Shown: positions 22,726-39,281, numbered from the stretch's first letter. The stretch is 64,000 nt of DNA from an uncultured Nitrososphaerota archaeon (GCA_964408285.1 CAYOYV010000002.1:1-64000), one strand, 5' to 3'. Made by a program: numbers and translations. Notes: generated by a model not told the origin, from the letters alone.

Positions 22726-24663
22726 TCAGCTGAATACTCCTCCACTTTCGCTGAGCTTCTTTCTAACCATCGAGACGGCCACTATCAGGGCGATTACTAT
22801 TATCACAGGGGCGCCATACATCCATAGGGGTATGTTTACTGCAAATTGCTGTGTACTGGTTCTTGCGAGATTCCCGAACGAATCAGATGCCTCTACGTAG
22901 TATTGTATTGTCAATGGCGAACCCTGAGCAGGAATAGTGGCTTCATAGATTTCTCCTTGTGGCGTCATCGATGTCGTTTCCCACTTTGACCCGCCATCTG
23001 TCGAATAGCACAGGCTCACCTGCTTGACTCCAGAGATCTCGTCCCTAATCCAAGCAGAGACTTTAATCTGCTCATACATCACGGGCGATTCGGGAGACAC
23101 CGCCGTCTTCCATATTATCGGAGGTTCGACATCGACTATCAAAACGAATTCAACACTCGGTGTCTCAGCTAGATTGCCTAGATTGTCTATTGCCTTTGCC
23201 TTCCAATTGTGTTTGCCGGGTGACACACCAATCGTCTGTATATAGGTGCTATTCTGTTTTTTCATCGTTCCTTGGCTTGCTCCATCGAAAAACAACTCCA
23301 CATTCGCTACCCCTGACCCGTTGTCTCGAACAATGACTTTGAAGTCCACTGAGACGGATTTCCTCATGAGCGTGCCAGTCGGTTCAGATATCGTCATTGA
23401 TGGAGCCGTATTGTCCATGAATACTCTGAAAGTTCTTTTGACCTCGGAATTGCCGACGTTATCTATGCTGTAGTATTCAATGGTCTGGTTCCCATCATGA
23501 GGATTGATGCCGAATGCAAGCCCTCGCGAATAGGTCTGCCAGTCACCTCCATCGACTCTATATTTCGTCTGGTTGACCCCACTGCCCTCGTCCTTGGAAC
23601 TCAAGGAGAAGGTGGTGTTTCTATTTACATACAGAATACCAGACACCTGAATCGACGGCCCAATCACCGTTATGTTAGTGACGGGAGGTATCGCGTCCAA
23701 GACGAACGTCTGCCATCTCGTATCCTCTCCGTAGTATTCGTAGTCCGTTGTCCAAGCCCTCACTGTCCATTGACCAGGCTGGTCGTCGTAATACCAGAAC
23801 TCCTTTGACGTCTCTCCATCAGCTATCACGATTTCGTTAGTTGCAGGGCCTCTTGGAGTAAGCGAGAATTTCTTGTTTGCTGATTTCGAATCGGAACTCA
23901 GCTTCACCTCTAGGACTCCTCGGGAAATGGGATTTCCACGGATATCCCTTCTGTGAACTTTCATCATGACCCAGGTATTCACGAAAGCTTGGCTGACTGC
24001 CTCAAGGCGAAGATAGGGAGGATAATAGCTGACAATCAGTGTGGGACGGTGAATGCTGTCGCTGGATTCCCTGGATCGGAATCTCGCGGATATTGCATTG
24101 GGCGGAGGTGCGTTCTCGATGTCGTCAATAATTCTCCAACCATAATTAGGGAGATAACTGGCCTCGTCCCTTCCTAGGAATTTCTGAACCCAATATGTTT
24201 CATTCCAGTTCATCCATCCGGGCAAAGTGCTGCTGGAATTAGTTGAAGAAAACGCGGCATCTACTGAGGGTTGTCCCTCCCATGTCAGGGCAGGAGCACT
24301 TTGGTCTCCTGCTTCGCTCCAAGGTCCATTCACTCGACTGGAGGTGTATGTGCGTGAAGTCGCTGGCGCCTCGAACATATATATGAGCATTGAAGCTTGA
24401 TTCACCACACAACCGGGTGGCAGAGTGCTTAGATTAAAGACTAGAAAGGTTCTGGCATTTGCTAAGGAGTAACTCTGAACCCAAAGGTAGTCCTGAGAGC
24501 CATAGGCGACACCCGGCATTGCGCTGTGGACATAGGCATCTGCCCTAGGATTGAGATAGGCGATCCTCAACTGGGTTTCGCCAAGGGATTCATGAGGCGA
24601 AACCATGGACAGAAGGAATAAGACACCCAGAACAACAGTCCATTTTCGCAGAGCAAGCACCAT
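22726..24663 (-). CDS. Secreted, C-terminally anchored DNRLRE-domain protein with Ig-like/OmpL47-type repeats
   Basis: Signal peptide; ADAYV..YGSQDYLWV..RTFLVFNLSTLP..PTLIVSY; SGVNQTKYRVDG, YYSIDNVGN; C-terminal TM plus RKK. Confidence 0.8.
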   Translation of the reverse strand: MVLALRKWTVVLGVLFLLSMVSPHESLGETQLRIAYLNPRADAYVHSAMPGVAYGSQDYLWVQSYSLANARTFLVFNLSTLPPGCVVNQASMLIYMFEAPATSRTYTSSRVNGPWSEAGDQSAPALTWEGQPSVDAAFSSTNSSSTLPGWMNWNETYWVQKFLGRDEASYLPNYGWRIIDDIENAPPPNAISARFRSRESSDSIHRPTLIVSYYPPYLRLEAVSQAFVNTWVMMKVHRRDIRGNPISRGVLEVKLSSDSKSANKKFSLTPRGPATNEIVIADGETSKEFWYYDDQPGQWTVRAWTTDYEYYGEDTRWQTFVLDAIPPVTNITVIGPSIQVSGILYVNRNTTFSLSSKDEGSGVNQTKYRVDGGDWQTYSRGLAFGINPHDGNQTIEYYSIDNVGNSEVKRTFRVFMDNTAPSMTISEPTGTLMRKSVSVDFKVIVRDNGSGVANVELFFDGASQGTMKKQNSTYIQTIGVSPGKHNWKAKAIDNLGNLAETPSVEFVLIVDVEPPIIWKTAVSPESPVMYEQIKVSAWIRDEISGVKQVSLCYSTDGGSKWETTSMTPQGEIYEATIPAQGSPLTIQYYVEASDSFGNLARTSTQQFAVNIPLWMYGAPVIIVIALIVAVSMVRKKLSESGGVFS

Positions 24664-24800
24664 GTATAGCCATTCATCTGGAAAACATATAAGGGTTTAA
24701 AGCTGCCAGTTTTGTTTCTCGAAAGTAAAATGCCGCATTAGAATGATGTCTGAGAGATAAATACCCGTTACTCATCCATTTCGAGAGAGGGTTTGCGCAT

Positions 24801-26714
24801 TTATGAGATCAAGAGTTCACCTTCCGTCGTTAGATTCTGGATTTCATTCAGGACGAGTTTCGTATCAGAAATGGTGATCAGATGATTGCCTATGTATAAT
24901 ATGCGTTTTATGTAACGAGAGGAATCCAAGCGGTAACCGGTTCTGGTAGCTTCGTAACATCTGTCTAGGTGAGTTATCTCGCCTTTTCTGATCAAGCCAC
25001 CATCGCCGGATAAATCAAATACGTAAGCGCCCTGGAAGACAATATCTCCGAATGCATATGGTGGCGCTCCATTTGGGAATTTGCTCCTGTCGATTATGGC
25101 AAGCATGATAGGAATAACGAGCAGCCCTCTCTCTTCGTCTAGCAGGAATGCCTTGTGGTCTTCTAGGATGGGGGACCAAGTCCCCCTGTCGCCAATCAAG
25201 GATTTGCTTATCTCTATAGGATTAGATAGGTCGGTCACATCGAACAAGGAGATCTTTATTCCCTGATACCAAGAGAAGTCTCCCTGCTCCGCGGGCACTG
25301 CATCTTTTCCTATGCCCAAAAGGTGACTCTCACCATAGGGATGAAGGTAATCTGAGTACCCCGGTATCTTCAGCTCGCCAAGGACAGTTGGAATATTCGG
25401 ATTGGAGATATCGATGACAAAAAGTGGATCGACTTTCCTAAAGGTCACAACATAGCATCTCGAACCCATGAATCTGGCGGAATATATTTTCTCCCCAATG
25501 GCGAGTCCCTCGAGCCTGCCAACAACCACTAAGTCCTCCATCCGAAGCACATACAGATTGTTTCTAGAGCTCGCCTCCTCGCTGTTCCGGGACAGATGTC
25601 CAGTAGTCGTCGCTAACCTCAGGAATCCCTGGTATTCGTCAACTGAGAATTGATTCAGCAGATATCCTGGAACCTTTCCACTTGCCTCAAACGCGATTCC
25701 TTTCCTGCCGATTCCTATTCTGTTTATGAACGTGAACTGACCACTTTCTCCAGTATAGCGAAGCTTTGGGGAACTGCTGATCCCTGTCATATATGAGGGG
25801 ATTGCCAGATAGATGTTGTCACGTGAGACGTAGATTGTTGTCGCGCTCCCAGTCAAGGCCACCTTACACGAGGCATCTTCCGGCAGCGATCTGATGCCCA
25901 CGGAGAGGATGACAGTGAAAGAATACGAGATGTCCTGGTCGTCCGGGCAGTAGTTGATATCGGTCACTGGTATCTCTGAGGTGGACCCATTCCTAGAGAT
26001 CCTCGGCAACGAGATATTGCCATTCTTCCCAATCGAAAGATAGGCGGGGCTAGTCGTGATGACATAAACATAGTCCTCGATGAGCCTTGAATCCAAGTAT
26101 TGGCCAGTGACGTTCAGAAAGCTAGCCAATCTCGGGCTGCTCGGGTCCTCTATGTCAAATATCTCGATCCATGTCATTGAGGGATAACGATCAGATTCGC
26201 AGTATCGTCCCAAGTAACCCATATCTGACAGCAGGACAACCAATCTATTGCCAGCTACGAAGAGGCCGACAGGTCTATTGACAAGCTTCAGCTTAGATAG
26301 GATTTCTGGCTTGTTTGGGGGATACGCCTTCACTATGAGAAGATTCTGACCTGACAACAAGTAGACGTATCTACCGTCAGTCTTGACGATGTCAGCCTCA
26401 TCAACGCCTTCAACCTGTATATTAGTACGAGAATATGGCATAGAGGCAACCTCGCCATCGCCGAATGCCACTTGCTTTGTCATTGCACCCGCAAGGGCGG
26501 GAAATGTATAGTCTAGAATCGAACGACTTTCTGTTTTTCTCGTGACAAGGAAATCTTTCAACTCGACAAGAGAGACAAATGGCCTATACTCTGAATCTCT
26601 CTTCGGAGGAGTCTGGCAAATAATTGTCGCCGAACCAAAACAGGCTATTGCATATGCGAGAACGACAAACATTACACGAACATAGGACGTAGTTGTGGGT
26701 CTCTTTAATGCCAT
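24801..26714 (-). CDS. Secreted beta-propeller domain protein (Beta_propel, COG4880-like)
   Basis: YSRTNIQVEGVDEADIVKTDG, LNQFSVDE, GEKIYSARF, TFRKVDPLFVID, GELKIPGYSDYLHP. Confidence 0.9.
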   Translation of the reverse strand: MALKRPTTTSYVRVMFVVLAYAIACFGSATIICQTPPKRDSEYRPFVSLVELKDFLVTRKTESRSILDYTFPALAGAMTKQVAFGDGEVASMPYSRTNIQVEGVDEADIVKTDGRYVYLLSGQNLLIVKAYPPNKPEILSKLKLVNRPVGLFVAGNRLVVLLSDMGYLGRYCESDRYPSMTWIEIFDIEDPSSPRLASFLNVTGQYLDSRLIEDYVYVITTSPAYLSIGKNGNISLPRISRNGSTSEIPVTDINYCPDDQDISYSFTVILSVGIRSLPEDASCKVALTGSATTIYVSRDNIYLAIPSYMTGISSSPKLRYTGESGQFTFINRIGIGRKGIAFEASGKVPGYLLNQFSVDEYQGFLRLATTTGHLSRNSEEASSRNNLYVLRMEDLVVVGRLEGLAIGEKIYSARFMGSRCYVVTFRKVDPLFVIDISNPNIPTVLGELKIPGYSDYLHPYGESHLLGIGKDAVPAEQGDFSWYQGIKISLFDVTDLSNPIEISKSLIGDRGTWSPILEDHKAFLLDEERGLLVIPIMLAIIDRSKFPNGAPPYAFGDIVFQGAYVFDLSGDGGLIRKGEITHLDRCYEATRTGYRLDSSRYIKRILYIGNHLITISDTKLVLNEIQNLTTEGELLIS

Positions 26715-26894
26715 CTCTCACCAGATCCTAGGAGAATGGAGTCAGCCGATTCCCATTAATCCTATTGTCTGGGACAAGATATTCACAGATTAGAACAGCA
26801 CGATTGAGGCAAAGAACACATTCGATCGTGCCAGAGGATAGAAAAAGCGAATCAACCCTTAAATACATTGAGCTTCTGCTGTCCAAGAGTCAAA

Positions 26895-27494
26895 ATGGAA
26901 ACCGAGGAGATAATGGGTGGTATCGGTGCACTTCTGATCGCTGTCGGATTCTCCAATTGGATATTGATGCTGGCCGGGATAGTGATGACTCTAATCTCTT
27001 TAAGGCGCTTGGCCGACCTATTCAAGGAGGAGAGGATTTTTCGGGATGCCCTGATCGGGCTGGTTGCAGGCGGAGTGGGCCTTGGCATAGCGTTTGTCTG
27101 TTTTCTAGCGATAATTCTGTCGATAGTATTTTCCTCCATGGCAACCTATGGGGCTCCCAAGCCCCCAATGACGGTCTATTCACCACTAAGGGAACTCTAT
27201 GCCCTTTTGCTGGGCCCGAGGCCTTTCCAGATACTGCTGGCATTGATCATTCCTTTACTGATAGTGTTCATCAGCCTGATGGTTCAGGGCGTATTCCTCA
27301 GAGAGGCCTTTAGGCTGCTCTCTGCCAGATCAGGTGAAAGGCTGTTCGATACTGCTGGCACTGTATTGCTCATAGGCTCCGTATTGACCGTACTACTTGT
27401 CGGATTCATGGTACTTCCAATTGGTTGGATTATTGTCGCAATTGCATTCTTCTCGCTGAAGGCGCCCGCTCAACAACCTCCTGTCCAAGCATAA
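26895..27494 (+). CDS. DUF996 family membrane protein
   Basis: GGIGALL..LISLRRLAD..IF; SGERLFDTAG..IGSVL..GWIIVAIAFFSL; TTAAATA 30 nt upstream. Confidence 0.8.
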   Translation: METEEIMGGIGALLIAVGFSNWILMLAGIVMTLISLRRLADLFKEERIFRDALIGLVAGGVGLGIAFVCFLAIILSIVFSSMATYGAPKPPMTVYSPLRELYALLLGPRPFQILLALIIPLLIVFISLMVQGVFLREAFRLLSARSGERLFDTAGTVLLIGSVLTVLLVGFMVLPIGWIIVAIAFFSLKAPAQQPPVQA

Positions 27495-27586: not shown

Positions 27587-28456
27587 ATGAATGATTATAT
27601 ACATAAGGAGGATGTTCATCATGATTTCGGGAGAGGTACTATGTCATCCGTTGGTGTAATGAGAAGACTCAGTCAATTGATGCCTTCGGAAGAAGGCCGA
27701 TGCGTTCTCGTACACGCTGCTGCCGACTGGTGCTCAGTAACGGGGGAGAATCAGGGGGCAAACTCAATGGCCTCTGACATTGCCCGATGCGGAGTGGATG
27801 GCATCATCTTTAGCATCAATGATGGAATTCGTCCGCTCGATGTTTTCCTCGGCAAAAAAGCTCCGGCAATACTGATGCACGTTAAGTCAGAGAATCTGCC
27901 TCACCAAGATTCGTCCAATCCGGTGGGGCTCAACTTTGCAGGGGGCGACTTCGATCAGGCCGTTATGCAGGCATTCAGATTCGGTGCTTTGGTTCTAGTC
28001 ACAGATTTCACGGTAGGACATGATACCGATGAAGGAGAGGCCAACAATTTCCATGCTGTATCCCGAATGGTCTCCAAATCTGAGGAGTTGGGCCTTCCCT
28101 GCCTAGTGACCGCAATACCGACGGGGAACAGGATAACAAAGGAAACTTACGCTGACTGTGTGGGTCTGGCCTCCAGAATGGCCTCGGAAGCTGGTGCGCA
28201 ATGCTTGGCAATACCTTACCCGGGAAACAAGGATTCCACGACTAGAATATTGGAGGCAACAGGGGTTCCTACTTTCCTGCTACAGCTACCGAAAGAATTC
28301 TCAAGATCACAACCAGAGTGTGACGTTGCAGAACTTGTCGATATTGCCCTTGGCACAGGAGCTTGTGGAGTCATTTTGTCTTCTCCTAAGGCAAAGAGCC
28401 AGATTAATGACATAAGGTGGGCAGTCAAGACAATTCATGGAGCTGAACCAGAATGA
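27587..28456 (+). CDS. Class I (DhnA/FbaB-like) aldolase paralog lacking the Schiff-base lysine
   Basis: Colinear with the downstream aldolase, but GAQCLAIPYPG has Ala (28208-28210) at the Lys position, and the DHG and GRN motifs are lost. Likely start ATG 27641 (GGAGAGGT SD). Confidence 0.8.
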   Translation: MNDYIHKEDVHHDFGRGTMSSVGVMRRLSQLMPSEEGRCVLVHAAADWCSVTGENQGANSMASDIARCGVDGIIFSINDGIRPLDVFLGKKAPAILMHVKSENLPHQDSSNPVGLNFAGGDFDQAVMQAFRFGALVLVTDFTVGHDTDEGEANNFHAVSRMVSKSEELGLPCLVTAIPTGNRITKETYADCVGLASRMASEAGAQCLAIPYPGNKDSTTRILEATGVPTFLLQLPKEFSRSQPECDVAELVDIALGTGACGVILSSPKAKSQINDIRWAVKTIHGAEPE

Positions 28457-29682
28457 TCGATGGGAAGAGAATCAGGCTCAGTAGGATAATAGACCCAAGC
28501 GATCAAAGGGCGATCGTCGTTGCATCCGATCATGGCATGATGTTGGGACCTATACCCGGGGCGGCGAAGCTGGAGTCAACATTGAAGGAGGTGATAAAGG
28601 GAAGGCCAGATGCAATACTAGTCTCCCCTGGGGAGGCCAGAATGCTGTCCCACCTTTTCAAAGGCAAGGAGTCTCCGGCTTTGCTCATCAGGGCAGACTG
28701 GACAAACGCATTTAGAGACAGGACTTATACTCTTCCAGCTAGATCGACGCAATTCTGTGCAGTCGCAGGAGTGAAGAGAGCCGCATCCCTGGGAGCTGAT
28801 GCGATAACAATATACCTGTTTGTTGGATACAATGACGCCGAACAGGAAGCTCTGCATTTCAAACAAGCAGTGGATTTCTCCAGGCAATCTTCAGAGTATG
28901 GGATCCCCCTAGTCATTGAACCGATCCCCATGGGCCCGAAAGTGACAAAGACGAACTACGAGGAACTTGTCAGGAAATCCGTGGAGCTAGCAGTTGAGGC
29001 GGGGGCGGACGCGTTGAAAGTGCCCTATACTGGAGACCCTGAGACGTTCAGTTCCGTGGTCAGTGCGGCGAAGGGTGTTCCACTACTCATATTGGGAGGG
29101 TACAGGGCTCTTTCTCCAAGGGAACCACTGGAGGCAGTGGAGGAGGCCTTGAGTGTCGGGGCTTCAGGAGTTGTTTTCGGGAGAAATGTGATCCAGTCAG
29201 AGGAACCAGCACAAGTACTAGAATTGATAAGGAGAGTCGTCCATGAAGGCAAGTCTGCAAGAGAAGCTCTCGCTGGAACTCTTGCGGGCCCAATAGTATT
29301 GAAGACAAACCCAGATCTCTGCACTAACTGCAGACTCTGTCTCTCTGCATGCGCAATGGCGCACGAGAGGGAATCCGACCTCGCGAAATCAAGGCTGAAG
29401 GTCCATATGGCCTGGCCGAAGGCAGTGGAATTGGCAACGTGTACTCAGTGTGGTCTTTGCGTTTCAGCTTGCCCAACAGAGGCGTTGGCATTGGATCAGA
29501 AGATAGGGGGCCTCAGGTATGTCCGCGAGGTCTGCAATCTGTGTGGAGAATGCAAAAAGGCATGCCCCTATGACCTGCCAATCATCAAAGATGGCGAAGT
29601 GCTAGTGTGTGACATGTGCAACGGATGGCCGGAATGTGTGGATTGGTGCCCGACTAGGGCCATCGGGGTCACAACGAGGTGA
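28453..29682 (+). CDS. Class I aldolase (DhnA family) fused to a C-terminal 4x[4Fe-4S] ferredoxin domain
   Basis: ASDHG, GADALKVPY (Lys at 29017-29019), LILGG, FGRNV; then CTNCRLCLSAC, CTQCGLCVSACP, CNLCGECKKACP, CDMC..ECVDWCP. Confidence 0.88.
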   Translation: MIDGKRIRLSRIIDPSDQRAIVVASDHGMMLGPIPGAAKLESTLKEVIKGRPDAILVSPGEARMLSHLFKGKESPALLIRADWTNAFRDRTYTLPARSTQFCAVAGVKRAASLGADAITIYLFVGYNDAEQEALHFKQAVDFSRQSSEYGIPLVIEPIPMGPKVTKTNYEELVRKSVELAVEAGADALKVPYTGDPETFSSVVSAAKGVPLLILGGYRALSPREPLEAVEEALSVGASGVVFGRNVIQSEEPAQVLELIRRVVHEGKSAREALAGTLAGPIVLKTNPDLCTNCRLCLSACAMAHERESDLAKSRLKVHMAWPKAVELATCTQCGLCVSACPTEALALDQKIGGLRYVREVCNLCGECKKACPYDLPIIKDGEVLVCDMCNGWPECVDWCPTRAIGVTTR

Positions 29683-31541
29683 ATGACGTGACCCTATCTG
29701 GTTCTGGATATGTGGGGAGAATCCTGCACATTGACCTGACGAGTGGAAAGACAACCGAAGAGGAGCTTGGGGAAGACAGAGCTCACGCATTCCTAGGGGG
29801 AAAAGGACTAGGCGCTTTTCTCTTGTTCAGGAACACTCCATCAGGGGCTGATCCGCTTTCTGAACAGAACACTTTGATCTTCTCAACGGGTCCGCTGACT
29901 GGCACAATCGCCCCAACAGGAAATCGATTCGCAGTGGTCACCAAGAGCCCAGCGACCGGCGCATTCTTGGACTCTCACTGTGGGGGGCCTTTCGGTGTCG
30001 GCCTAAAGAAATTCGGCTATGACGCGCTCTCGATCGGTGGATCCTGTGATGAACAATCCATTCTGATCCTTCAGGACGGTAAGGTCAATATGGAATCCGC
30101 CAAAGAAGTCTCAGGCAAGAGCACAATCGATACCGAGGCCGCTTTGAAGAATCGGTTTGGGAAAGATGCCGCAATTGCTTGCATAGGTCCAGCTGGAGAG
30201 AGGCTAGCTCGGTTGGCATGCATTTTCAGCGGACTCAGAGCAGCTGGGAGAGGAGGATCGGGTGCCGTCATGGGATCTAAGAAACTCAAGGCAATAATTG
30301 CGAACGGAACTGAGAGACTCTTGGTCAGGTATCCTGAGCTGTTCATGAAGGCCGCATGGCTGGCTCACAGGTCGATCAGGATGCATGAGACTACAGTCAG
30401 ACAGCTCCCGAGATACGGCACCAATAACATCTTGGAGACCATCAATGCAACAGGAGGGCTCCCAGTGAATAATTTCCAGAGCGCTGGACTGGAGAATCCC
30501 CAGGACATAACCGGGGAAAGCTGGAGGAAATTGGTATGGGTCAAGGATACTGCTTGCTTCAATTGCCCAATCGGCTGCAGCAAGATGGCCATTTTGAGAT
30601 CCGGAAAATACGCGGGTACAATCGTTGATGGACCAGACTATGAAACCACCTGGGCCCTTGGACCGAATTGTGGGGTCACGGAAAGGGACGCCATAGTGAA
30701 GGCCAACGAGTTGTGTGATCTCTATGGCGTTGACACGATCTCCACTGGGGGAACAATAGCATTCGCTATGGAATGCTTTGAGAAGGGAATCCTGCCAAAA
30801 GACCGTCTGGATGGAATTGAAGCTAGATTCGGAAATGCGGACGCAGTGGTCATGCTTACTGAAAAAATATGTAGGGGAGAGGGCGTGGGAAGAATTATGC
30901 AGAACGGCGCAAGGATTTTCGCCGAATCTCTCTCTATGCTGAGGCAGAACAAATCCCTAGCAGATTACGCCATGCAGAGCAAGGGGCTTGAATTGCCAGC
31001 CTACGAGCCAAGGGCCGCCCAAGGCATGGGTCTCGGATATGCCACTTCGGACAGAGGAGGCTGCCACCTGAGGGCATATACTGCGAATCAGGAGCTGCTC
31101 GGTCATGGAGGTGGTGTCGATCCGCGCACTACGAAGGGAAAAGCCCAGCTTGTCATTGACAAGCAGAACGAAAAAGCGGTCGTCGATTCAGTTGGCATAT
31201 GCTTCTTTTCATTGTATGCCATCTCACTGAAAGACATAAGGCGGATGGTCGTCACAGCCACCGGACTTGACTTCAAGACGACAAAGGACCTCGAATCAGT
31301 GGGAGAGAGGGTCTACAATCTGACTAGGCTTTTCAACATCCGTGAGGGTCTCTCATCGAAAGACGACAGCCTCCCACATAGGTTCACAAATGAGCCTCTG
31401 CCTGGCCCAGTCGCCAAGGGGGAGGTCTCGAAGCTTTCCGAAATGCTTGCCGAATACTATTCCCTAAGAGGGTGGAATGAGGACGGAGTTCCAGAGAAGG
31501 AGAAGCTGATGGAACTCGGTTTGCTGAGCTTTCTAACTTGA
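29679..31541 (+). CDS. aor: Tungsten-dependent aldehyde:ferredoxin oxidoreductase family large subunit
   Basis: GGKGLG, KSPATG, IGPAGE, GRGGSGAVMGSKKLKA, CFNCPIGC, GPDYET, DTIS, RGGCHL, DSVGIC, YYSLRGW. Confidence 0.93.
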   Translation: MNDVTLSGSGYVGRILHIDLTSGKTTEEELGEDRAHAFLGGKGLGAFLLFRNTPSGADPLSEQNTLIFSTGPLTGTIAPTGNRFAVVTKSPATGAFLDSHCGGPFGVGLKKFGYDALSIGGSCDEQSILILQDGKVNMESAKEVSGKSTIDTEAALKNRFGKDAAIACIGPAGERLARLACIFSGLRAAGRGGSGAVMGSKKLKAIIANGTERLLVRYPELFMKAAWLAHRSIRMHETTVRQLPRYGTNNILETINATGGLPVNNFQSAGLENPQDITGESWRKLVWVKDTACFNCPIGCSKMAILRSGKYAGTIVDGPDYETTWALGPNCGVTERDAIVKANELCDLYGVDTISTGGTIAFAMECFEKGILPKDRLDGIEARFGNADAVVMLTEKICRGEGVGRIMQNGARIFAESLSMLRQNKSLADYAMQSKGLELPAYEPRAAQGMGLGYATSDRGGCHLRAYTANQELLGHGGGVDPRTTKGKAQLVIDKQNEKAVVDSVGICFFSLYAISLKDIRRMVVTATGLDFKTTKDLESVGERVYNLTRLFNIREGLSSKDDSLPHRFTNEPLPGPVAKGEVSKLSEMLAEYYSLRGWNEDGVPEKEKLMELGLLSFLT

Positions 31542-34852: not shown

Positions 34853-35872
34853 ATGATTGCGAGAATGCAAGTACTTACGGCAGGATTCTTGGTGGCGGAC
34901 ATAATAGCTGCCGACCTGCCTAAGCTAGCTGATGAGGGCGAACTGCTATTTGCGCCGAAAGGTATCCAGTTGAGCATCGGAGGGCATCCGGCAAACGTCT
35001 CAATTGACCTGAGGCAACTGGGGATTCCACCAAAGGAGGTCGCACTCGTTTCGGCGATAGGAAGAGACATGTTCGGGAATTTCATCAAGGACACTCTGGA
35101 AGCTCATCAGATTGTAACGCGGCTTCAAATAGTAGAGAATATTGACACGACGAAGAATATCATAATGGTAGTCAAGAACGAAGACAGAAGATTCCATCTC
35201 GATCTCGGTGCGAGTTGGCATTTGGATCCAAGGATGGTCGAGGCATTTCTCAAGGAGACTAGACCGGATATATTCTACGTGGCTACTGGCATAGTACGGA
35301 AGCTTGATGAACGACTACCACAAGTCTTGAAGACCGCCAAGGAGATGGGCTGTCTGACATTCGTAGACATAGTAAGGCCATACATGAAGGGCTGGGATTT
35401 CGTGATTCCTTCCTTCAGATCCACCGATATTTTCCACTGTAACGATTATGAAGCGACAGAAATAACTGGAAAGAACCAACTAATCGAGTCACTCGGTTTC
35501 ATTATCAAGGCAGGCGCACGCGCAGTCTTTGTCACGACCGGCCAAGGAGGCGCTACTGCAATGACTTCAGAAGGGGGCCTCGTTCGACAACCGGCCTTGA
35601 GAGTCACCGCCGTTGATCCAACAGGAGCAGGAGATGCGTTCTGCGCAGGCATCGTACGCGAGCTCTTAAGAAGGCGCGTCACGAAGGATCCGAAGGAAGC
35701 TCTCTCCATATCAAGCCTGCCGGAGATATTGCTCTATGGTCAGGCGGCAGGAGCCGCTTGCGTCACCGGAATAGGAACAACGACCAACGTGACAAGGGAA
35801 GTCGTGCAAGGACTCATGGACAGGCAAGGCAAATCAATTCTTAAGGCGACAGAATCCAGAGAGTTAGGATAG
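34853..35872 (-). other. No credible minus-strand gene here; see the plus-strand PfkB kinase
   Basis: Minus-strand ORFs in this interval are short shadows of the kinase gene. Confidence 0.05.
34853..35872 (+). CDS. PfkB/ribokinase family carbohydrate kinase
   Basis: GGHPAN, IGRDMFG, CNDYEA, DPTGAGDAF signature. Confidence 0.92.
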   Translation: MIARMQVLTAGFLVADIIAADLPKLADEGELLFAPKGIQLSIGGHPANVSIDLRQLGIPPKEVALVSAIGRDMFGNFIKDTLEAHQIVTRLQIVENIDTTKNIIMVVKNEDRRFHLDLGASWHLDPRMVEAFLKETRPDIFYVATGIVRKLDERLPQVLKTAKEMGCLTFVDIVRPYMKGWDFVIPSFRSTDIFHCNDYEATEITGKNQLIESLGFIIKAGARAVFVTTGQGGATAMTSEGGLVRQPALRVTAVDPTGAGDAFCAGIVRELLRRRVTKDPKEALSISSLPEILLYGQAAGAACVTGIGTTTNVTREVVQGLMDRQGKSILKATESRELG

Positions 35873-35941
35873 ACATTCATTAGAGATGCACTAGCGTGCC
35901 AGATTTATTAGCCTAGGTTCGGACGTGGAGGACGAGCTTCC

Positions 35942-37066
35942 ATGATCAGGGATATCAGGAGTCAAGGTAGGTTGAGAAGCAAGGATCAATTGGTGAAGCA
36001 TCTCGACGAGTTTAGATTGATGCCAAAATTCTCCGCCGGAGTTTGGTACTTCTTTCCATCCGGCAGTAGATTCCACGAAAGATATGGTGCTCCCGGCTCA
36101 ATAGAAGACACTCTCGGCATTGTCTCGAGACTCCATGATGAGGAAGCAATTGACAGCAGTTTCAGGCTTGAAGCGCACTACCCAAATGAAGTAAACAGAG
36201 ACAATGTTGATGATTACAGGGCAATCAAAAAGGAAACGGGAATCGGTCTTATCACAGTTGTGCCAAACCTGTTCTTCGAGAGGGAGTTCGAGTTCGGATC
36301 TCTATCAAGCCCAATCAAGGAAGTCAGGGACCATGCGATATCAAGGACCGTTGAAGCATTGACGCTTAATAGGGAATTGGATACTGATTTCATGATAGTT
36401 TGGCCCGGAATCGATGGCTACGAGAACCCATTCGCTACTGATTTCATCGGGATGTGGAATAGGTTTGAGGGGGGCTTGGCCTATGCGATGGATCAGGTTC
36501 CAGGAAGAAGAGTCGCAATAGAACCAAAGCCGTATGAGCCAAGGGGAAATAACATCTACAGGAATACCTCTAACGGGATACTGATGGCGCACAAGGTGGA
36601 GAGACTCCTGTTATCTAGGGAGAACAGAGAATTAATAGAAAAGGGGCACGCACTTGTAGCTCTCAATCCAGAAGTGGGGCATGTCCTGATGGGGCATGAA
36701 GAACTCGCGTATTCGCTTGCATCAATTCTAAGGGAGGGTAGGCTGGCTCACACCCACTGGAATAGCCAACCCTTGGGAAACTACGATCAGGATCTTAACG
36801 TCGGTGTCCTCGGACTGGATCAGCTGTATTCTGCACTTTTCACCCTGAAGATGCAGGGATATGATGGATATTTCGGCATCGACATCAATCCGGAAAGGAT
36901 GCCAGTTGATACAGCCCTGAAATTGAACATGAAGGCCATCAGGACCGCTTGTGACAAACTCAACCATATTCCGTATGAGGATTGGGTGAACTTGGTAGAA
37001 GCGATGATCAATCCATCAGCAAACAGGGGAATGATAGAAGAGACATTTCTGAGAAATCTCCTTTGA
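35942..37066 (+). CDS. Xylose-isomerase-family sugar isomerase (XylA/L-rhamnose/apiose isomerase-like)
   Basis: FSAGVWYF, VWPGIDG, IEPKPYEPR, LNPEVGH, YDQDL, DINP metal-binding motifs. Confidence 0.88.
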   Translation: MIRDIRSQGRLRSKDQLVKHLDEFRLMPKFSAGVWYFFPSGSRFHERYGAPGSIEDTLGIVSRLHDEEAIDSSFRLEAHYPNEVNRDNVDDYRAIKKETGIGLITVVPNLFFEREFEFGSLSSPIKEVRDHAISRTVEALTLNRELDTDFMIVWPGIDGYENPFATDFIGMWNRFEGGLAYAMDQVPGRRVAIEPKPYEPRGNNIYRNTSNGILMAHKVERLLLSRENRELIEKGHALVALNPEVGHVLMGHEELAYSLASILREGRLAHTHWNSQPLGNYDQDLNVGVLGLDQLYSALFTLKMQGYDGYFGIDINPERMPVDTALKLNMKAIRTACDKLNHIPYEDWVNLVEAMINPSANRGMIEETFLRNLL

Positions 37067-37123
37067 TGCCAATCCGGTCTAATGAGCATCTAGCTGTTGC
37101 GAAGGAGCCATATAGGCACAATT

Positions 37124-37137
37124 GAAGAAAAAGAAAG
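37124..37137 (-). terminator. Oligo-T archaeal terminator candidate
   Basis: Minus strand reads TTTCTTTTTCTTC just after the stop codon at 37143. Confidence 0.4.
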
Positions 37138-37142
37138 GTGAG

Positions 37143-38303
37143 CTAGAAGCTCACCACCATCCTCTTACCGGTAGATGCCGATTCTAGTATCGAGTCGAGT
37201 ATCACCGCATTTTTATATCCATCCTCGAATGTTGCACCTATCGGGGCTATCTGCCCATCATTGACGATTGCGTTTACGAAGTGATAGATTTCATTGATGA
37301 AGGTGTGTTCCCATCCTATTATGTGTCCTGAAGGCCAATACCTTTCGATGTACGGTTGCGTTTTCTCCGTCACCAGTATCTCGGTCCAGCCTCCTATAGC
37401 TTTCTGTTCTCCCGCCTTGTCGTAGAATCTGAGCTCATTCAACCTCTCCAAGTTGAACTCAAGCGATCCCTTCTCCCCATTCACTTCAAAGTTATTGTAG
37501 TTCTTTCTTCCAGTTGCGAATCTTGAGGCCTCTAGAGTGCCTATCGCTCCATTGGCGAATTCCACAGTCGCCTCGAACGCATCCTCGACGGTCACCTTTC
37601 CCCTTCTGGACGGTTGTGCAGGCAGCGGCCTTTCCTCAATGAAGGTCCTCGTGATTCCTGATATGGCAACGGGCTCTCCTATGACGAACCTTGCCAAGTC
37701 AACTATGTGGCTTCCGAGGTCTCCTAGTGGGCCACTTCCTGCACTGTCCTTCTGTAGCCTCCATACGAGGGGGAAGTCAGGGTCTACTATCCAATCCTGT
37801 AGGTACCTTGCCCTGAAGTGATAGATTTTTCCCAAGACTCCGGACTTCACGATGTTTCGGGCCAACTGAACTGCCGGAACAAATCTGTAATTGAATGCAA
37901 CCATTGTCTTCACTCCGTGTTTCTTGGATACCTCATACATGGCCTTCGCCTCTTTCGCATTTCTCGCCAAGGGTTTCTCGCAGATCACATGTTTCCCATT
38001 CTCAATCGCAAGTATGCTCGGCTCGGGATGCATGTCATTTGGCAGGCAATTGTCTATTATCTGGACCTCAGGATCAGCCACCGTGGCCTTCCAGTCCGTG
38101 GAATGTCTCCTGAACCCGAAGTTCTGGGCAGCCTCTTCTACCTTGTTTTGCGTCCTGCCGAATATGACGATCAACTCAGGAACCGCGGGCGGTGGGTAGA
38201 AGAAGTGGGGCATGCTCTTGAACGCGTGTGAATGAGACTTGCCCATGAAGGCATAACCCAACATGCCAACTCCGATTTTCCTGATGCTGGACATTCGTTT
38301 CAC
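37143..38303 (-). CDS. Gfo/Idh/MocA dehydrogenase, levoglucosan-dehydrogenase-like
   Basis: GYAFMGKSH, CEKPL, FNYR, YLQDW, WRLQK..AGSGPLGDLGSH. Confidence 0.9.
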   Translation of the reverse strand: MKRMSSIRKIGVGMLGYAFMGKSHSHAFKSMPHFFYPPPAVPELIVIFGRTQNKVEEAAQNFGFRRHSTDWKATVADPEVQIIDNCLPNDMHPEPSILAIENGKHVICEKPLARNAKEAKAMYEVSKKHGVKTMVAFNYRFVPAVQLARNIVKSGVLGKIYHFRARYLQDWIVDPDFPLVWRLQKDSAGSGPLGDLGSHIVDLARFVIGEPVAISGITRTFIEERPLPAQPSRRGKVTVEDAFEATVEFANGAIGTLEASRFATGRKNYNNFEVNGEKGSLEFNLERLNELRFYDKAGEQKAIGGWTEILVTEKTQPYIERYWPSGHIIGWEHTFINEIYHFVNAIVNDGQIAPIGATFEDGYKNAVILDSILESASTGKRMVVSF

Positions 38304-39281
38304 CTACCACCAGGGCTTGACCTCGGGGGGCTTTATCTTCACAAGCGGCTTGAGGAAGGCTATTGCCTGTTCAACGCCAGAGTCCCTGCTGAAACACGGA
38401 TCCTCGTGTTCGACGCTGAGCGCGTAGTCGTACCCTGTTTCCAATAGCGCAGTTATGACTTGCTTCCATGGAACCTGACCCCAGCCAACTGTTCTGAATC
38501 TGACGCCTCTCGCGACTCTCGTCCAAGGGCCAGGAATGAGAACGCCGGTCCTAGAGACAACGTGGGGGATGACCTCAACATCCTTCGCATGGGCGTGATA
38601 TATCCTGTCATGTAGTTCGTAAATGAACTGCGCAGTGTCCATCCCTTGCCACACAAGATGCGACGGATCGTAGTTGAAGCCAAGTGCAGGATGCCCATTG
38701 CCTGCCTCGACCAATGCCTTAGCAGTGTCGAGATTGTGATTCAGTTCCTGGGGATGGGTTTCAAAGGCGACTTTCACTCCATGGTCTTTCGCAAAATCCA
38801 ATACTGGTAGCCATCGCTCCTTGAACAGGTTCAGGTAGCCATCCCAGATCTTCTGATTAGCTGGAGGGAAAGGGAACCACTTACCCCATTCTGGCACACC
38901 TGTGAAACCATTTACGACTCGAACTCCCAGAGACTGTGCTGCTTCTATTGTTCGCATCATCCTTCTGGTGCCGTACTTGACCTTTTCAGACGGAGTGCCC
39001 TTGAACCAATCGTCTGTGGATTCGTCGTGAGGACCTAGTATCAATTGGCCTTCAAGATGATTGCTCAATGCAGAGATCTCCAGACCATGTTTCCCCATCT
39101 CCCTAAGATATTCCTGCGACCCTCCCTCCACGACGCTATCTATGTCGATATGGTTGCTTCCTTTCCACGCAGCTATCTCAACCATCTCAAATCCGATAGT
39201 GGCAACGTATGACAGGACCTGATCTAAGGGTTGGTCATTGTATAGAGCTAGGAAAATTCCAACTTTCATTTCACTTTGCAC
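38304..39281 (-). CDS. Sugar phosphate isomerase/epimerase family TIM barrel (AP_endonuc_2)
   Basis: FETHP, NYDPSHLVWQG, HAHAKD, SVEHED; abuts the dehydrogenase gene. Confidence 0.9.
   Translation of the reverse strand: MQSEMKVGIFLALYNDQPLDQVLSYVATIGFEMVEIAAWKGSNHIDIDSVVEGGSQEYLREMGKHGLEISALSNHLEGQLILGPHDESTDDWFKGTPSEKVKYGTRRMMRTIEAAQSLGVRVVNGFTGVPEWGKWFPFPPANQKIWDGYLNLFKERWLPVLDFAKDHGVKVAFETHPQELNHNLDTAKALVEAGNGHPALGFNYDPSHLVWQGMDTAQFIYELHDRIYHAHAKDVEVIPHVVSRTGVLIPGPWTRVARGVRFRTVGWGQVPWKQVITALLETGYDYALSVEHEDPCFSRDSGVEQAIAFLKPLVKIKPPEVKPWW

Follow-up and report, generated by a model that had tools for sequence, protein, structure and literature searches.

A predicted aldolase–polyferredoxin fusion in a conserved three-gene tungsten-type oxidoreductase cassette of an uncultured Nitrososphaerota archaeon

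Why would an aldolase and the iron-sulfur (Fe-S) small subunit of a tungsten-type aldehyde oxidoreductase be encoded as a single polypeptide? The question is raised by three overlapping genes at positions 27587-31541 of a 64,000-nucleotide stretch of DNA (the window) from an uncultured Nitrososphaerota archaeon of sediment (GCA_964408285.1, CAYOYV010000002.1:1-64000), in which an apparent class I aldolase continues into a polyferredoxin domain and is followed by a gene of the aldehyde:ferredoxin oxidoreductase (AOR) family. A first-pass annotation of the window had proposed that this fusion couples aldehyde production to ferredoxin-linked aldehyde oxidation, and the analysis presented here supports such an aldolase-AOR coupling as far as computation reaches. 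We consider it fairly probable that the three genes specify one complex, composed of the pterin-containing large subunit of a tungsten oxidoreductase (WOR), termed WorL, an aldolase-fused small subunit (WorS) and an aldolase paralog predicted to be catalytically dead, in which a ketose 1-phosphate would be split, the resulting aldehyde oxidised, and ferredoxin reduced.

A fused gene in a recurrent three-gene cassette

All three genes lie on the plus strand. Gene 1 (27587..28456) encodes, when read from the ATG at 27587, a pseudo-aldolase of 289 amino acids (aa), that is, a DhnA-type paralog without the catalytic residues. Gene 2 (28453..29682), the fusion, is one continuous open reading frame (ORF) of 409 aa, in which a predicted class I (Schiff-base) DhnA-type aldolase domain (residues 1-273; 28453..29271) is joined by a short linker with no stop codon (residues 274-289; 29272..29319) to a WorS/AorA-like polyferredoxin domain carrying 16 cysteines in four [4Fe-4S] motifs (residues 290-409; 29320..29682). 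Gene 3 (29679..31541) has a GTG start and encodes the AOR-family pterin subunit WorL, of 620 aa. The first two genes overlap by ATGA at 28453-28456 and the last two by GTGA at 29679-29682. The ORFs and their overlaps are as first annotated; the one correction concerns the start of gene 1, which the databases give as a 271-aa protein, implying initiation at the ATG at 27641.

The other features that had been read from the gene sequences were all located. The aldolase motifs correspond to D26-H27-G28, to the predicted Schiff-base lysine K189 (codon AAA, 29017..29019) and to the GRN motif at residues 243-245; the reading frame then runs without a stop into 16 cysteines that lie between residues 290 and 399; and gene 3 is a complete AOR-family gene, whose product matches the Pfam families AFOR_N (233.7 bits) and AFOR_C (443.2 bits) at full length. 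Altogether, the three proteins match DeoC, Fer4 families and AFOR in Pfam, and no other family.

The fused architecture is widespread. A homolog search with the fusion protein in 5.8 billion clustered proteins returned 194 matches, and among the 120 matches listed, both DeoC and Fer4 were found in 113 clusters, the other 7 being aldolase-only proteins of 275-284 aa. The source names among these listed matches were Bathyarchaeia, Brockarchaeota, Thermoproteota, Sigynarchaeota, KSB1, and Anaerolineae. In a second search, in the Atlas, DeoC and Fer4 occurred together in two clusters (96 and 87 members), for the most part from Chloroflexota, which added nothing further to this picture.

We then considered genomic context in a set of 79 distinct loci, taken from the contigs of one genome per species across archaea and bacteria. 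A full-length fusion is encoded in 35 of these loci, and an AOR gene lies directly downstream in 34 of the 35, the exception (L026) being a contig that stops 180 bases past the fusion. Since the same arrangement recurs in 35 of 79 distinct loci from species genomes, it is not due to chance. A split arrangement, with separate aldolase, WorS and WorL genes side by side, was sought and was found in none of the 79 loci. Architecture and synteny, two of the comparisons that the first-pass annotation had proposed as checks, thus both came out as it had anticipated; it had also raised the possibility that relatives would encode the two domains separately, with a stop between them, and the relatives have no stop there.

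The integrity of the junction, a further point raised at that time, was confirmed by independent assemblies. Contigs from three other sediment metagenome runs (X2, 28967-29707; X3, 28958-29701; X4, 29043-29734; together 28958-29734) bridge both the domain junction and the gene 2/gene 3 overlap with 0 gaps and no indels, and in run X8 the junction is unbridged, with pieces that stop at 29187 and resume at 29452. The cassette is a conserved and widespread three-gene unit, and the fusion is no artefact.

Within the class to which the window belongs, the full-length fusion is found in 9 of 26 genomes, including that of the window itself (G000), and within its family in 1 of 6, only G000; the cassette is therefore accessory. 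A separate aldolase of about 272-296 aa is encoded in most of the 26 genomes of the class, G000 among them. When all flanking ORFs of the 35 loci and the window (36 sources) were clustered, the aldolase cluster was present in 35 sources and the AOR cluster in 34, while the next-largest cluster reached 7. Across 25 loci, the pairwise distances of the four cassette parts were correlated (Spearman r 0.69-0.83, among related sequences that are not independent), as is expected for co-inherited genes. In the same 25 loci the aldolase domain is the most conserved and slowest-evolving part (median pairwise identity of 55.2%), followed by the AOR (52.7%), the Fe-S domain (39.5%) and the gene 1 paralog, the fastest-evolving (32.7%); in the nearest relative, the fusion is 92% identical and gene 1 70%.

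Two local irregularities were seen in these comparisons. On a Phycisphaerae contig (L040:1504-3233), a paralog lacking the lysine precedes a fusion gene whose match is broken in two (residues 4-169 and 210-334) and extends beyond the end of the contig; the break may reflect a frameshift or an assembly gap. In each of the four runs, a three- to sevenfold increase in contig depth marks 30240-30376 of the window, and numerous contig ends are left loose at 30260 and 30292-30296; this looks like the effect of an AOR stretch conserved enough to attract contigs of other organisms.

The predicted subunits

Homology and gene position both point to the fused Fe-S domain being an AOR small subunit of the WorS/AorA type, in line with the original proposal. 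Many Fer4 families of Pfam match residues 289-390 of the gene 2 product, and its cysteines fall into four motifs (290/293/296/300; 330/333/336/340; 361/364/367/371; 386/389/395/399). We counted conservation over 70 fusion homologs: 14 of the 16 cysteines are invariant in these 70 sequences, and the other two are found in 68. Searched against the PDB, residues 274-409 show whole-length homology to the small subunit of Pyrococcus furiosus WOR5 (6x6u_B, its residues 13-132; E 2.7e-21), with the cysteine motifs in register, to AorA of Aromatoleum (8c0z_C; E 3e-15) and to 9mqx_E (E 1.4e-12). MvhB, a longer polyferredoxin, scores above these, only by way of its repeats.

The position of the domain next to WorL has a counterpart in the same genome. 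Two other AOR genes (G000:C1:279405-281798 and G000:C35:880-3335) are adjoined, in the corresponding position, by stand-alone polyferredoxins of 169 and 185 aa that hold 16-17 cysteines and are 28-30% identical to the fused domain. In the cassette, the place of this small subunit is filled by the C terminus of the aldolase. The AOR locus on C1 also adjoins cysteine-rich ORFs that look like a hydrogenase cluster, and the fourth AOR of the genome, on C12, has no small subunit and is followed by an 80-aa ORF.

WorL carries a CxxCxxxC motif at residues 293-300 (30555-30578), with cysteines at 293, 296 and 300, and a further Cys508; by analogy with the P. furiosus AOR, we take these four to be [4Fe-4S] ligands. 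Its best PDB matches are 9mqx_D (485.8 bits), 1aor_A (482.6) and 8c0z_A (417.1), with WOR5 at 237.2 bits, and it reaches 40.1 bits against the equivalog model of GAPOR, the glyceraldehyde-3-phosphate oxidoreductase, for which the cut-off is 1300. Because WorL is thus nearest to broad-specificity AORs and barely matches the GAPOR model, an unphosphorylated aldehyde is favoured as its substrate.

The AORs of the cassettes form one clade (support of 100 in the Shimodaira–Hasegawa-like approximate likelihood ratio test, SH-aLRT), apart from the three other AORs of the genome and from the second AOR of a Chloroflexia locus, L023. In this tree, which comes from a quick search and has a midpoint root only, two bacterial groups branch from within the archaeal sequences, which are basal. 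The second AOR of L023 (8037-10341) lies 1 kb downstream of the cassette AOR and is followed by a separate polyferredoxin-like ORF. Elsewhere in the window's genome, a candidate tungstate ABC transporter is encoded at G000:C5:13216-15755 (L088:717-3256), where a TupA-like binding protein (183.4 bits; cut-off 400) and a TupB-like permease (163 bits; cut-off 320) are followed by an ATPase; TupA is the sole NCBIfam match of the binding protein, and a search for WtpA did not find it. The Tup-like genes lend indirect support to tungsten, rather than molybdenum, as the metal of the pterin site.

The aldolase domain, of the DhnA type (NCBIfam PRK07226 subfamily), is predicted to be catalytically competent but atypical. 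It matches Pfam DeoC/LacD (PF01791) with 109.6 bits over residues 22-248 (cut-off 23.8), so that its membership in the family is clear, and it aligns with MJ0400 (2qjg) over residues 4-273 (E 4.3e-33), as well as with the fructose 1,6-bisphosphate (FBP) aldolase of Thermoproteus tenax (1ojx) and with LsrF. In an AlphaFold2 model of the whole fusion protein (predicted local distance difference test, pLDDT, 90.8; predicted template modelling score, pTM, 0.84; residues 271-280, on the linker side, at pLDDT 83), the domain adopts a triose-phosphate isomerase (TIM) barrel fold, with a target-normalised template modelling score (TM) of 0.89 to 2qjh. In a Foldseek search of the same model, no solved chain covered both domains, the best query-normalised TM being 0.59.

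The positions expected of an active enzyme are largely retained. D26, H27, G215, G216, G243 and R244 are invariant in all 70 fusion homologs, and K189 is kept in 67. This lysine aligns with that of the GAD..K motif of MJ0400 and of the T. tenax aldolase, which we take to be the catalytic lysine of both enzymes. Position 245 is N in 52 homologs, Q in 17 and K in 1, and the G-G and G-R-N elements align with motifs of 2qjg and 1ojx, presumably the loops that bind the C1 phosphate. Other positions set the family apart: Glu156, kept in 67 of the 70, lies two residues ahead of the position held in T. tenax and MJ0400 by the tyrosine of an S-Y-P-R-G stretch, presumably the proton shuttle of the T. 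tenax enzyme; the position of the arginine in the T. tenax W-S-Y-P-R-G stretch is mostly hydrophobic, with Arg in 1 of the 70; and the motif R-A-D-W-T-N-A-F-R, with an insertion, is specific to the fusion family.

Gene 1 had been left uninterpreted in the first-pass annotation; we add here that it is, as judged from its residues, a conserved and catalytically dead paralog of the aldolase. Its product matches DeoC weakly (35.1 bits), has Ala208 (codon at 28208) at the position of the Schiff-base lysine, and is changed at the D-H and GRN positions, which places it outside the catalytic family. In a formal alignment of 29 paralogs, including that of the window, the lysine position is A, I, V, T or M, and D-H and G-R-N are lost; inspection of the GAD motif shows the lysine to be missing from 7 further paralogs, of which three come from partial loci. 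The paralog was found in 32 of the 32 fused loci that could be judged, upstream of the fusion in 31 and downstream of the AOR in L012, a count that leaves out L005 and L007, which begin at the fusion, and L029, whose upstream region is masked. A word-based search with gene 1 matched itself and one relative, at 70% identity.

Modelling supports the binding of the gene 1 product to the aldolase domain of the fusion. With the full fusion protein and the paralog as partners, the complex model gave a median score of 0.70, as compared to 0.00 for the best control; the mark applied to this score is reached by 58 of 80 solved complexes and by 2 of 110 mismatched pairs. Contacts agree by at least 85% between runs, the pLDDT of the partner is at least 77, and the contacts fall solely on the aldolase domain, at residues 26, 28-29, 58-64, 83, 85 and 93-109, which include D26, G28, W83, N85 and the family-specific insertion (93-109). 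The paralog is probably the third subunit of the complex.

A proposed coupled reaction and its alternatives

How might these subunits work together? In the reading that we favour, Lys189 of the aldolase domain would form a Schiff base with a ketose 1-phosphate, which would be split into dihydroxyacetone phosphate (DHAP) and a free aldehyde. The latter would probably be unphosphorylated (for example glyceraldehyde, lactaldehyde or glycolaldehyde), and the neighbouring WorL would oxidise it to the acid. The two electrons would pass from the [4Fe-4S] cluster of WorL along the four clusters in the fused domain and on to ferredoxin. The Fe-S domain would dock on WorL as in the homologous solved WorL-WorS pairs, and the dead paralog would pair with the aldolase domain as a third subunit. 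Tethered in this way, the reactive aldehyde would probably be oxidised as soon as it is made. The scheme builds on the computed architecture, residue conservation, synteny and dedicated AOR clade, together with a modelled interface between pseudo-aldolase and aldolase; the direction of the reaction, the substrate and the channelling are what we infer.

Several observations weigh against this scheme. Glutamate replaces Lys189 in 3 of the 70 homologs (P0078, P0079 and P0081) and in locus L008, so that catalysis would not be universal in the family. Position 158, aligned with the S-Y-P-R-G tyrosine, is occupied by I, L, V or M in 70 of 70, and the chemistry may therefore differ from that of known members. 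Scores fall under all NCBIfam equivalog cut-offs (ADH synthase, 162.2 against 299.45; archaeal FBP aldolase, 158.3 against 430; LsrF, 104.2 against 297), and therefore no substrate can be assigned from them. No conserved neighbour firmly names a substrate either, the largest neighbour cluster, of xylose-isomerase-like TIM barrels, being present in 7 of the 36 sources, the window included, and the flanks of the closest archaeal loci are uninformative. Finally, the score of the modelled complex may mirror its likeness to solved homo-oligomers of this aldolase family.

The sequences with Glu189 form a subclade (P0078, P0079, P0081; L008:5992-7221) that also carries G28N, E156T and G194Q; in L008 the upstream paralog lacks the lysine too, and neither copy appears catalytic. 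As for specific assignments, the ADH synthase of the 6-deoxy-5-ketofructose 1-phosphate (DKFP) pathway was rejected on three grounds: the score lies below the cut-off, no type II 3-dehydroquinate (DHQ) synthase was found in the window's genome (93.7% complete), and the cassette occurs also in bacteria.

The same complex might instead run in reverse, with reduced ferredoxin driving the reduction of an acid to an aldehyde by WorL, and the tethered aldolase condensing that aldehyde with DHAP at once and so pulling a very unfavourable reduction forward. Aldolases are reversible, a tether would be most useful where the aldehyde is held very low, and the evidence from architecture is identical for the two directions. 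Moreover, according to the accessible text of PMC9295118 and PMC10816221, no enzymes other than AORs are known to reduce non-activated acids with low-potential donors. However, those flanks that are informative are catabolic (glycosidases, sulfatase, sugar kinases, isomerases), and the cassette encodes no low-potential electron source of its own; we regard operation in this direction as unlikely.

A glycolytic bypass, in which an FBP aldolase is combined with an AOR that oxidises glyceraldehyde 3-phosphate in the manner of GAPOR or GOR, would draw on the match of the aldolase domain to the archaeal class I FBP aldolase model (158.3 bits) and to T. tenax FBP aldolase structures, and on the GOR of Caldicellulosiruptor bescii, a Class II WOR described in the accessible text of PMC13328260 as oxidising glyceraldehyde 3-phosphate with a WorS subunit. 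We find this rather improbable, as the FBP aldolase score is far under its cut-off of 430, the 40.1 bits of WorL compare with a GAPOR cut-off of 1300, its nearest solved relatives are the broad-specificity 1aor and 9mqx_D, and the W-S-Y-P-R-G stretch of T. tenax has I/L/V/M in place of Tyr and a mostly hydrophobic residue in place of Arg (Arg in 1 of 70). The bypass is also at odds with the separate DhnA aldolase of the genome (276 aa, at G000:C3) and with the patchy presence of the cassette within the class (9 of 26 genomes); a housekeeping FBP aldolase role is unlikely on these same two grounds.

It is just as improbable that the aldolase fold and the dead paralog serve merely to oligomerise a Class II WOR, aldol cleavage and aldehyde oxidation being metabolically uncoupled. 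That the paralog appears clearly non-catalytic and that 3 of the 70 fusions are without Lys189 would fit such a scaffold, and known AOR small subunits can build higher-order assemblies (as the accessible text of PMC10413684 and PMC12318220 has it); yet Lys189 is present in 67 of 70 fusions and D26, H27, G215-G216 and G243-R244 in all 70, whereas the paralog has lost them, and no part of the cassette evolves more slowly than the aldolase domain. That the fusion is an artefact of assembly or of gene calling is rejected as practically inconceivable, given that 113 of the 120 clusters among the matches listed are two-domain, that 35 loci are fused, and that contigs of three runs span the junction with 0 gaps.

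Neighbouring genes, known relatives and meaning

We scanned 38 flanking proteins across the loci with Pfam. The flanks of the bacterial and of some archaeal loci encode FGGY and PfkB kinases, xylose-isomerase-like TIM barrels and GFO/IDH/MocA oxidoreductases, as well as a class II aldolase, alpha-galactosidases and a sulfatase. L006 is flanked by mevalonate genes, and nothing informative surrounds the stand-alone aldolase of L037. In six Anaerolineales loci (L024, L027, L033, L034, L041, L054), a TauE/SafE-family exporter and a UPF0261 protein follow the cassette in 6 of 6 and a phosphoenolpyruvate (PEP)-hydrolase-like protein in 4 of 6, a LarA-like protein is encoded close upstream in 5 of 6, and a creatininase-family gene is present in four; these flanks may represent a fixed larger operon and an anionic, possibly sulfonated product.

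In the window itself, a sugar-type group of genes begins 3 kb downstream of the cassette, and consists of a PfkB kinase identified by Pfam (34853-35872, plus strand), a xylose-isomerase-like TIM barrel (35942-37066, plus), a GFO/IDH/MocA oxidoreductase (37143-38303, minus) and a second TIM barrel (38304-39281, minus). The set at 34853-39281 resembles one for inositol or rare-sugar catabolism, and its link to the cassette is unproven. Upstream, within 22726-27494, the minus strand carries two large ORFs (645 and 637 aa) whose predicted products are hydrophobic at the N terminus, and a DUF996 membrane protein of 208 aa is encoded at 26868-27494 on the plus strand.

By its subunit content, the cassette is a Class II WOR in the tungsten oxidoreductase classification of 2026, which the accessible text of PMC13328260 divides into five classes. 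As in the known members of Class II (P. furiosus WOR5/ASOR, 6x6u and 6x1o; C. bescii GOR), an AOR-family pterin subunit stands beside a subunit with four [4Fe-4S] clusters. However, the known WorS is a free protein of about 150-190 aa, whereas here it forms the C-terminal part of an aldolase of 409 aa, accompanied by a third gene for a predicted dead paralog, and WorL is closer to AOR proper (1aor, 482.6 bits) than to WOR5 (237.2 bits). The word aldolase has 0 occurrences in the main text of PMC13328260, and none in PMC9246946.

Other relatives share one or another part of the design. AorABC of Aromatoleum aromaticum (8c0z) and the WOR of 9mqx have a similar WorL (417.1 and 485.8 bits) and homologous polyferredoxins; in contrast to them, the cassette has no subunit for flavin or nicotinamide adenine dinucleotide (FAD/NAD; AorC/WorN) and no WorABC genes, and its small subunit carries an aldolase instead. 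DmpFG and HsaFG (1nvm, 4jn6) follow the same logic, that of an aldolase physically coupled to an aldehyde-oxidising enzyme with direct transfer of the aldehyde (in the accessible text of PMC12041015), but these pair metal-dependent, pyruvate-forming aldolases with NAD/coenzyme A (CoA)-dependent dehydrogenases of the GapDH superfamily, where the cassette would pair a Schiff-base, DHAP-type aldolase with a pterin/Fe-S enzyme expected to reduce ferredoxin. The likeness is one of function, the proteins being unrelated.

The aldolase domain itself shares its TIM barrel with the DhnA enzymes MJ0400 ADH synthase (2qjg), T. tenax FBP aldolase (1ojx) and Escherichia coli LsrF (3gkf), at target-normalised TM of 0.88-0.89, and its D-H, Lys, G-G and G-R-N positions align with theirs; it differs from them in having I/L/V/M for Tyr, a near-invariant Glu156, its own R-A-D-W-T-N-A-F-R motif with insertion, and the fused Fe-S domain. 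A metabolic precedent is reportedly found in the non-phosphorylative Entner-Doudoroff branch of T. tenax, where an aldolase is said to free glyceraldehyde and an AOR-type enzyme to oxidise it; there, however, the enzymes are separate and unfused, and the aldolase is of another, pyruvate-forming family.

In the literature that we searched, made up mostly of openly available papers, a fusion between an aldolase and the small subunit of an AOR is nowhere described, and the earlier impression that no characterised example exists was borne out to that extent. The component families are known; the fusion, the dead third subunit and the coupling that they imply are undescribed in that literature.

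More tentatively, the cassette might stand for a sixth, undescribed class of tungsten oxidoreductase, built around a core in which active and dead DhnA aldolase subunits would oligomerise together, with Fe-S arms that would each hold a WorL. The DhnA aldolase family presumably forms decamers. In such an assembly, cleavage of a C-C bond of a sugar phosphate would be wired directly to the reduction of ferredoxin by way of an aldehyde channel private to the complex. The dead paralog would give this channel its shape or fix the stoichiometry, and the cassette would have moved between archaea and at least three bacterial phyla. We consider this larger picture clearly less probable than the three-subunit complex itself.

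In the accessible text of PMC13328260, a physiological role is defined for a member of only 5 of the 92 tungsten oxidoreductase clades. Here, the fused aldolase names the step that would feed one such enzyme, and its substrate range is consequently directly testable with ketose 1-phosphates. The cassette also offers a clean case of a predicted active enzyme retained together with a conserved dead paralog and, because AORs also reduce acids to aldehydes, could serve biocatalysis as a self-contained three-gene module. If the proposed coupling is true, the NAD-linked aldolase-dehydrogenase channelling complexes would have in this complex their first counterpart linked to ferredoxin, and Bathyarchaeia and Anaerolineales would gain low-potential electrons from the cleavage of sugars.

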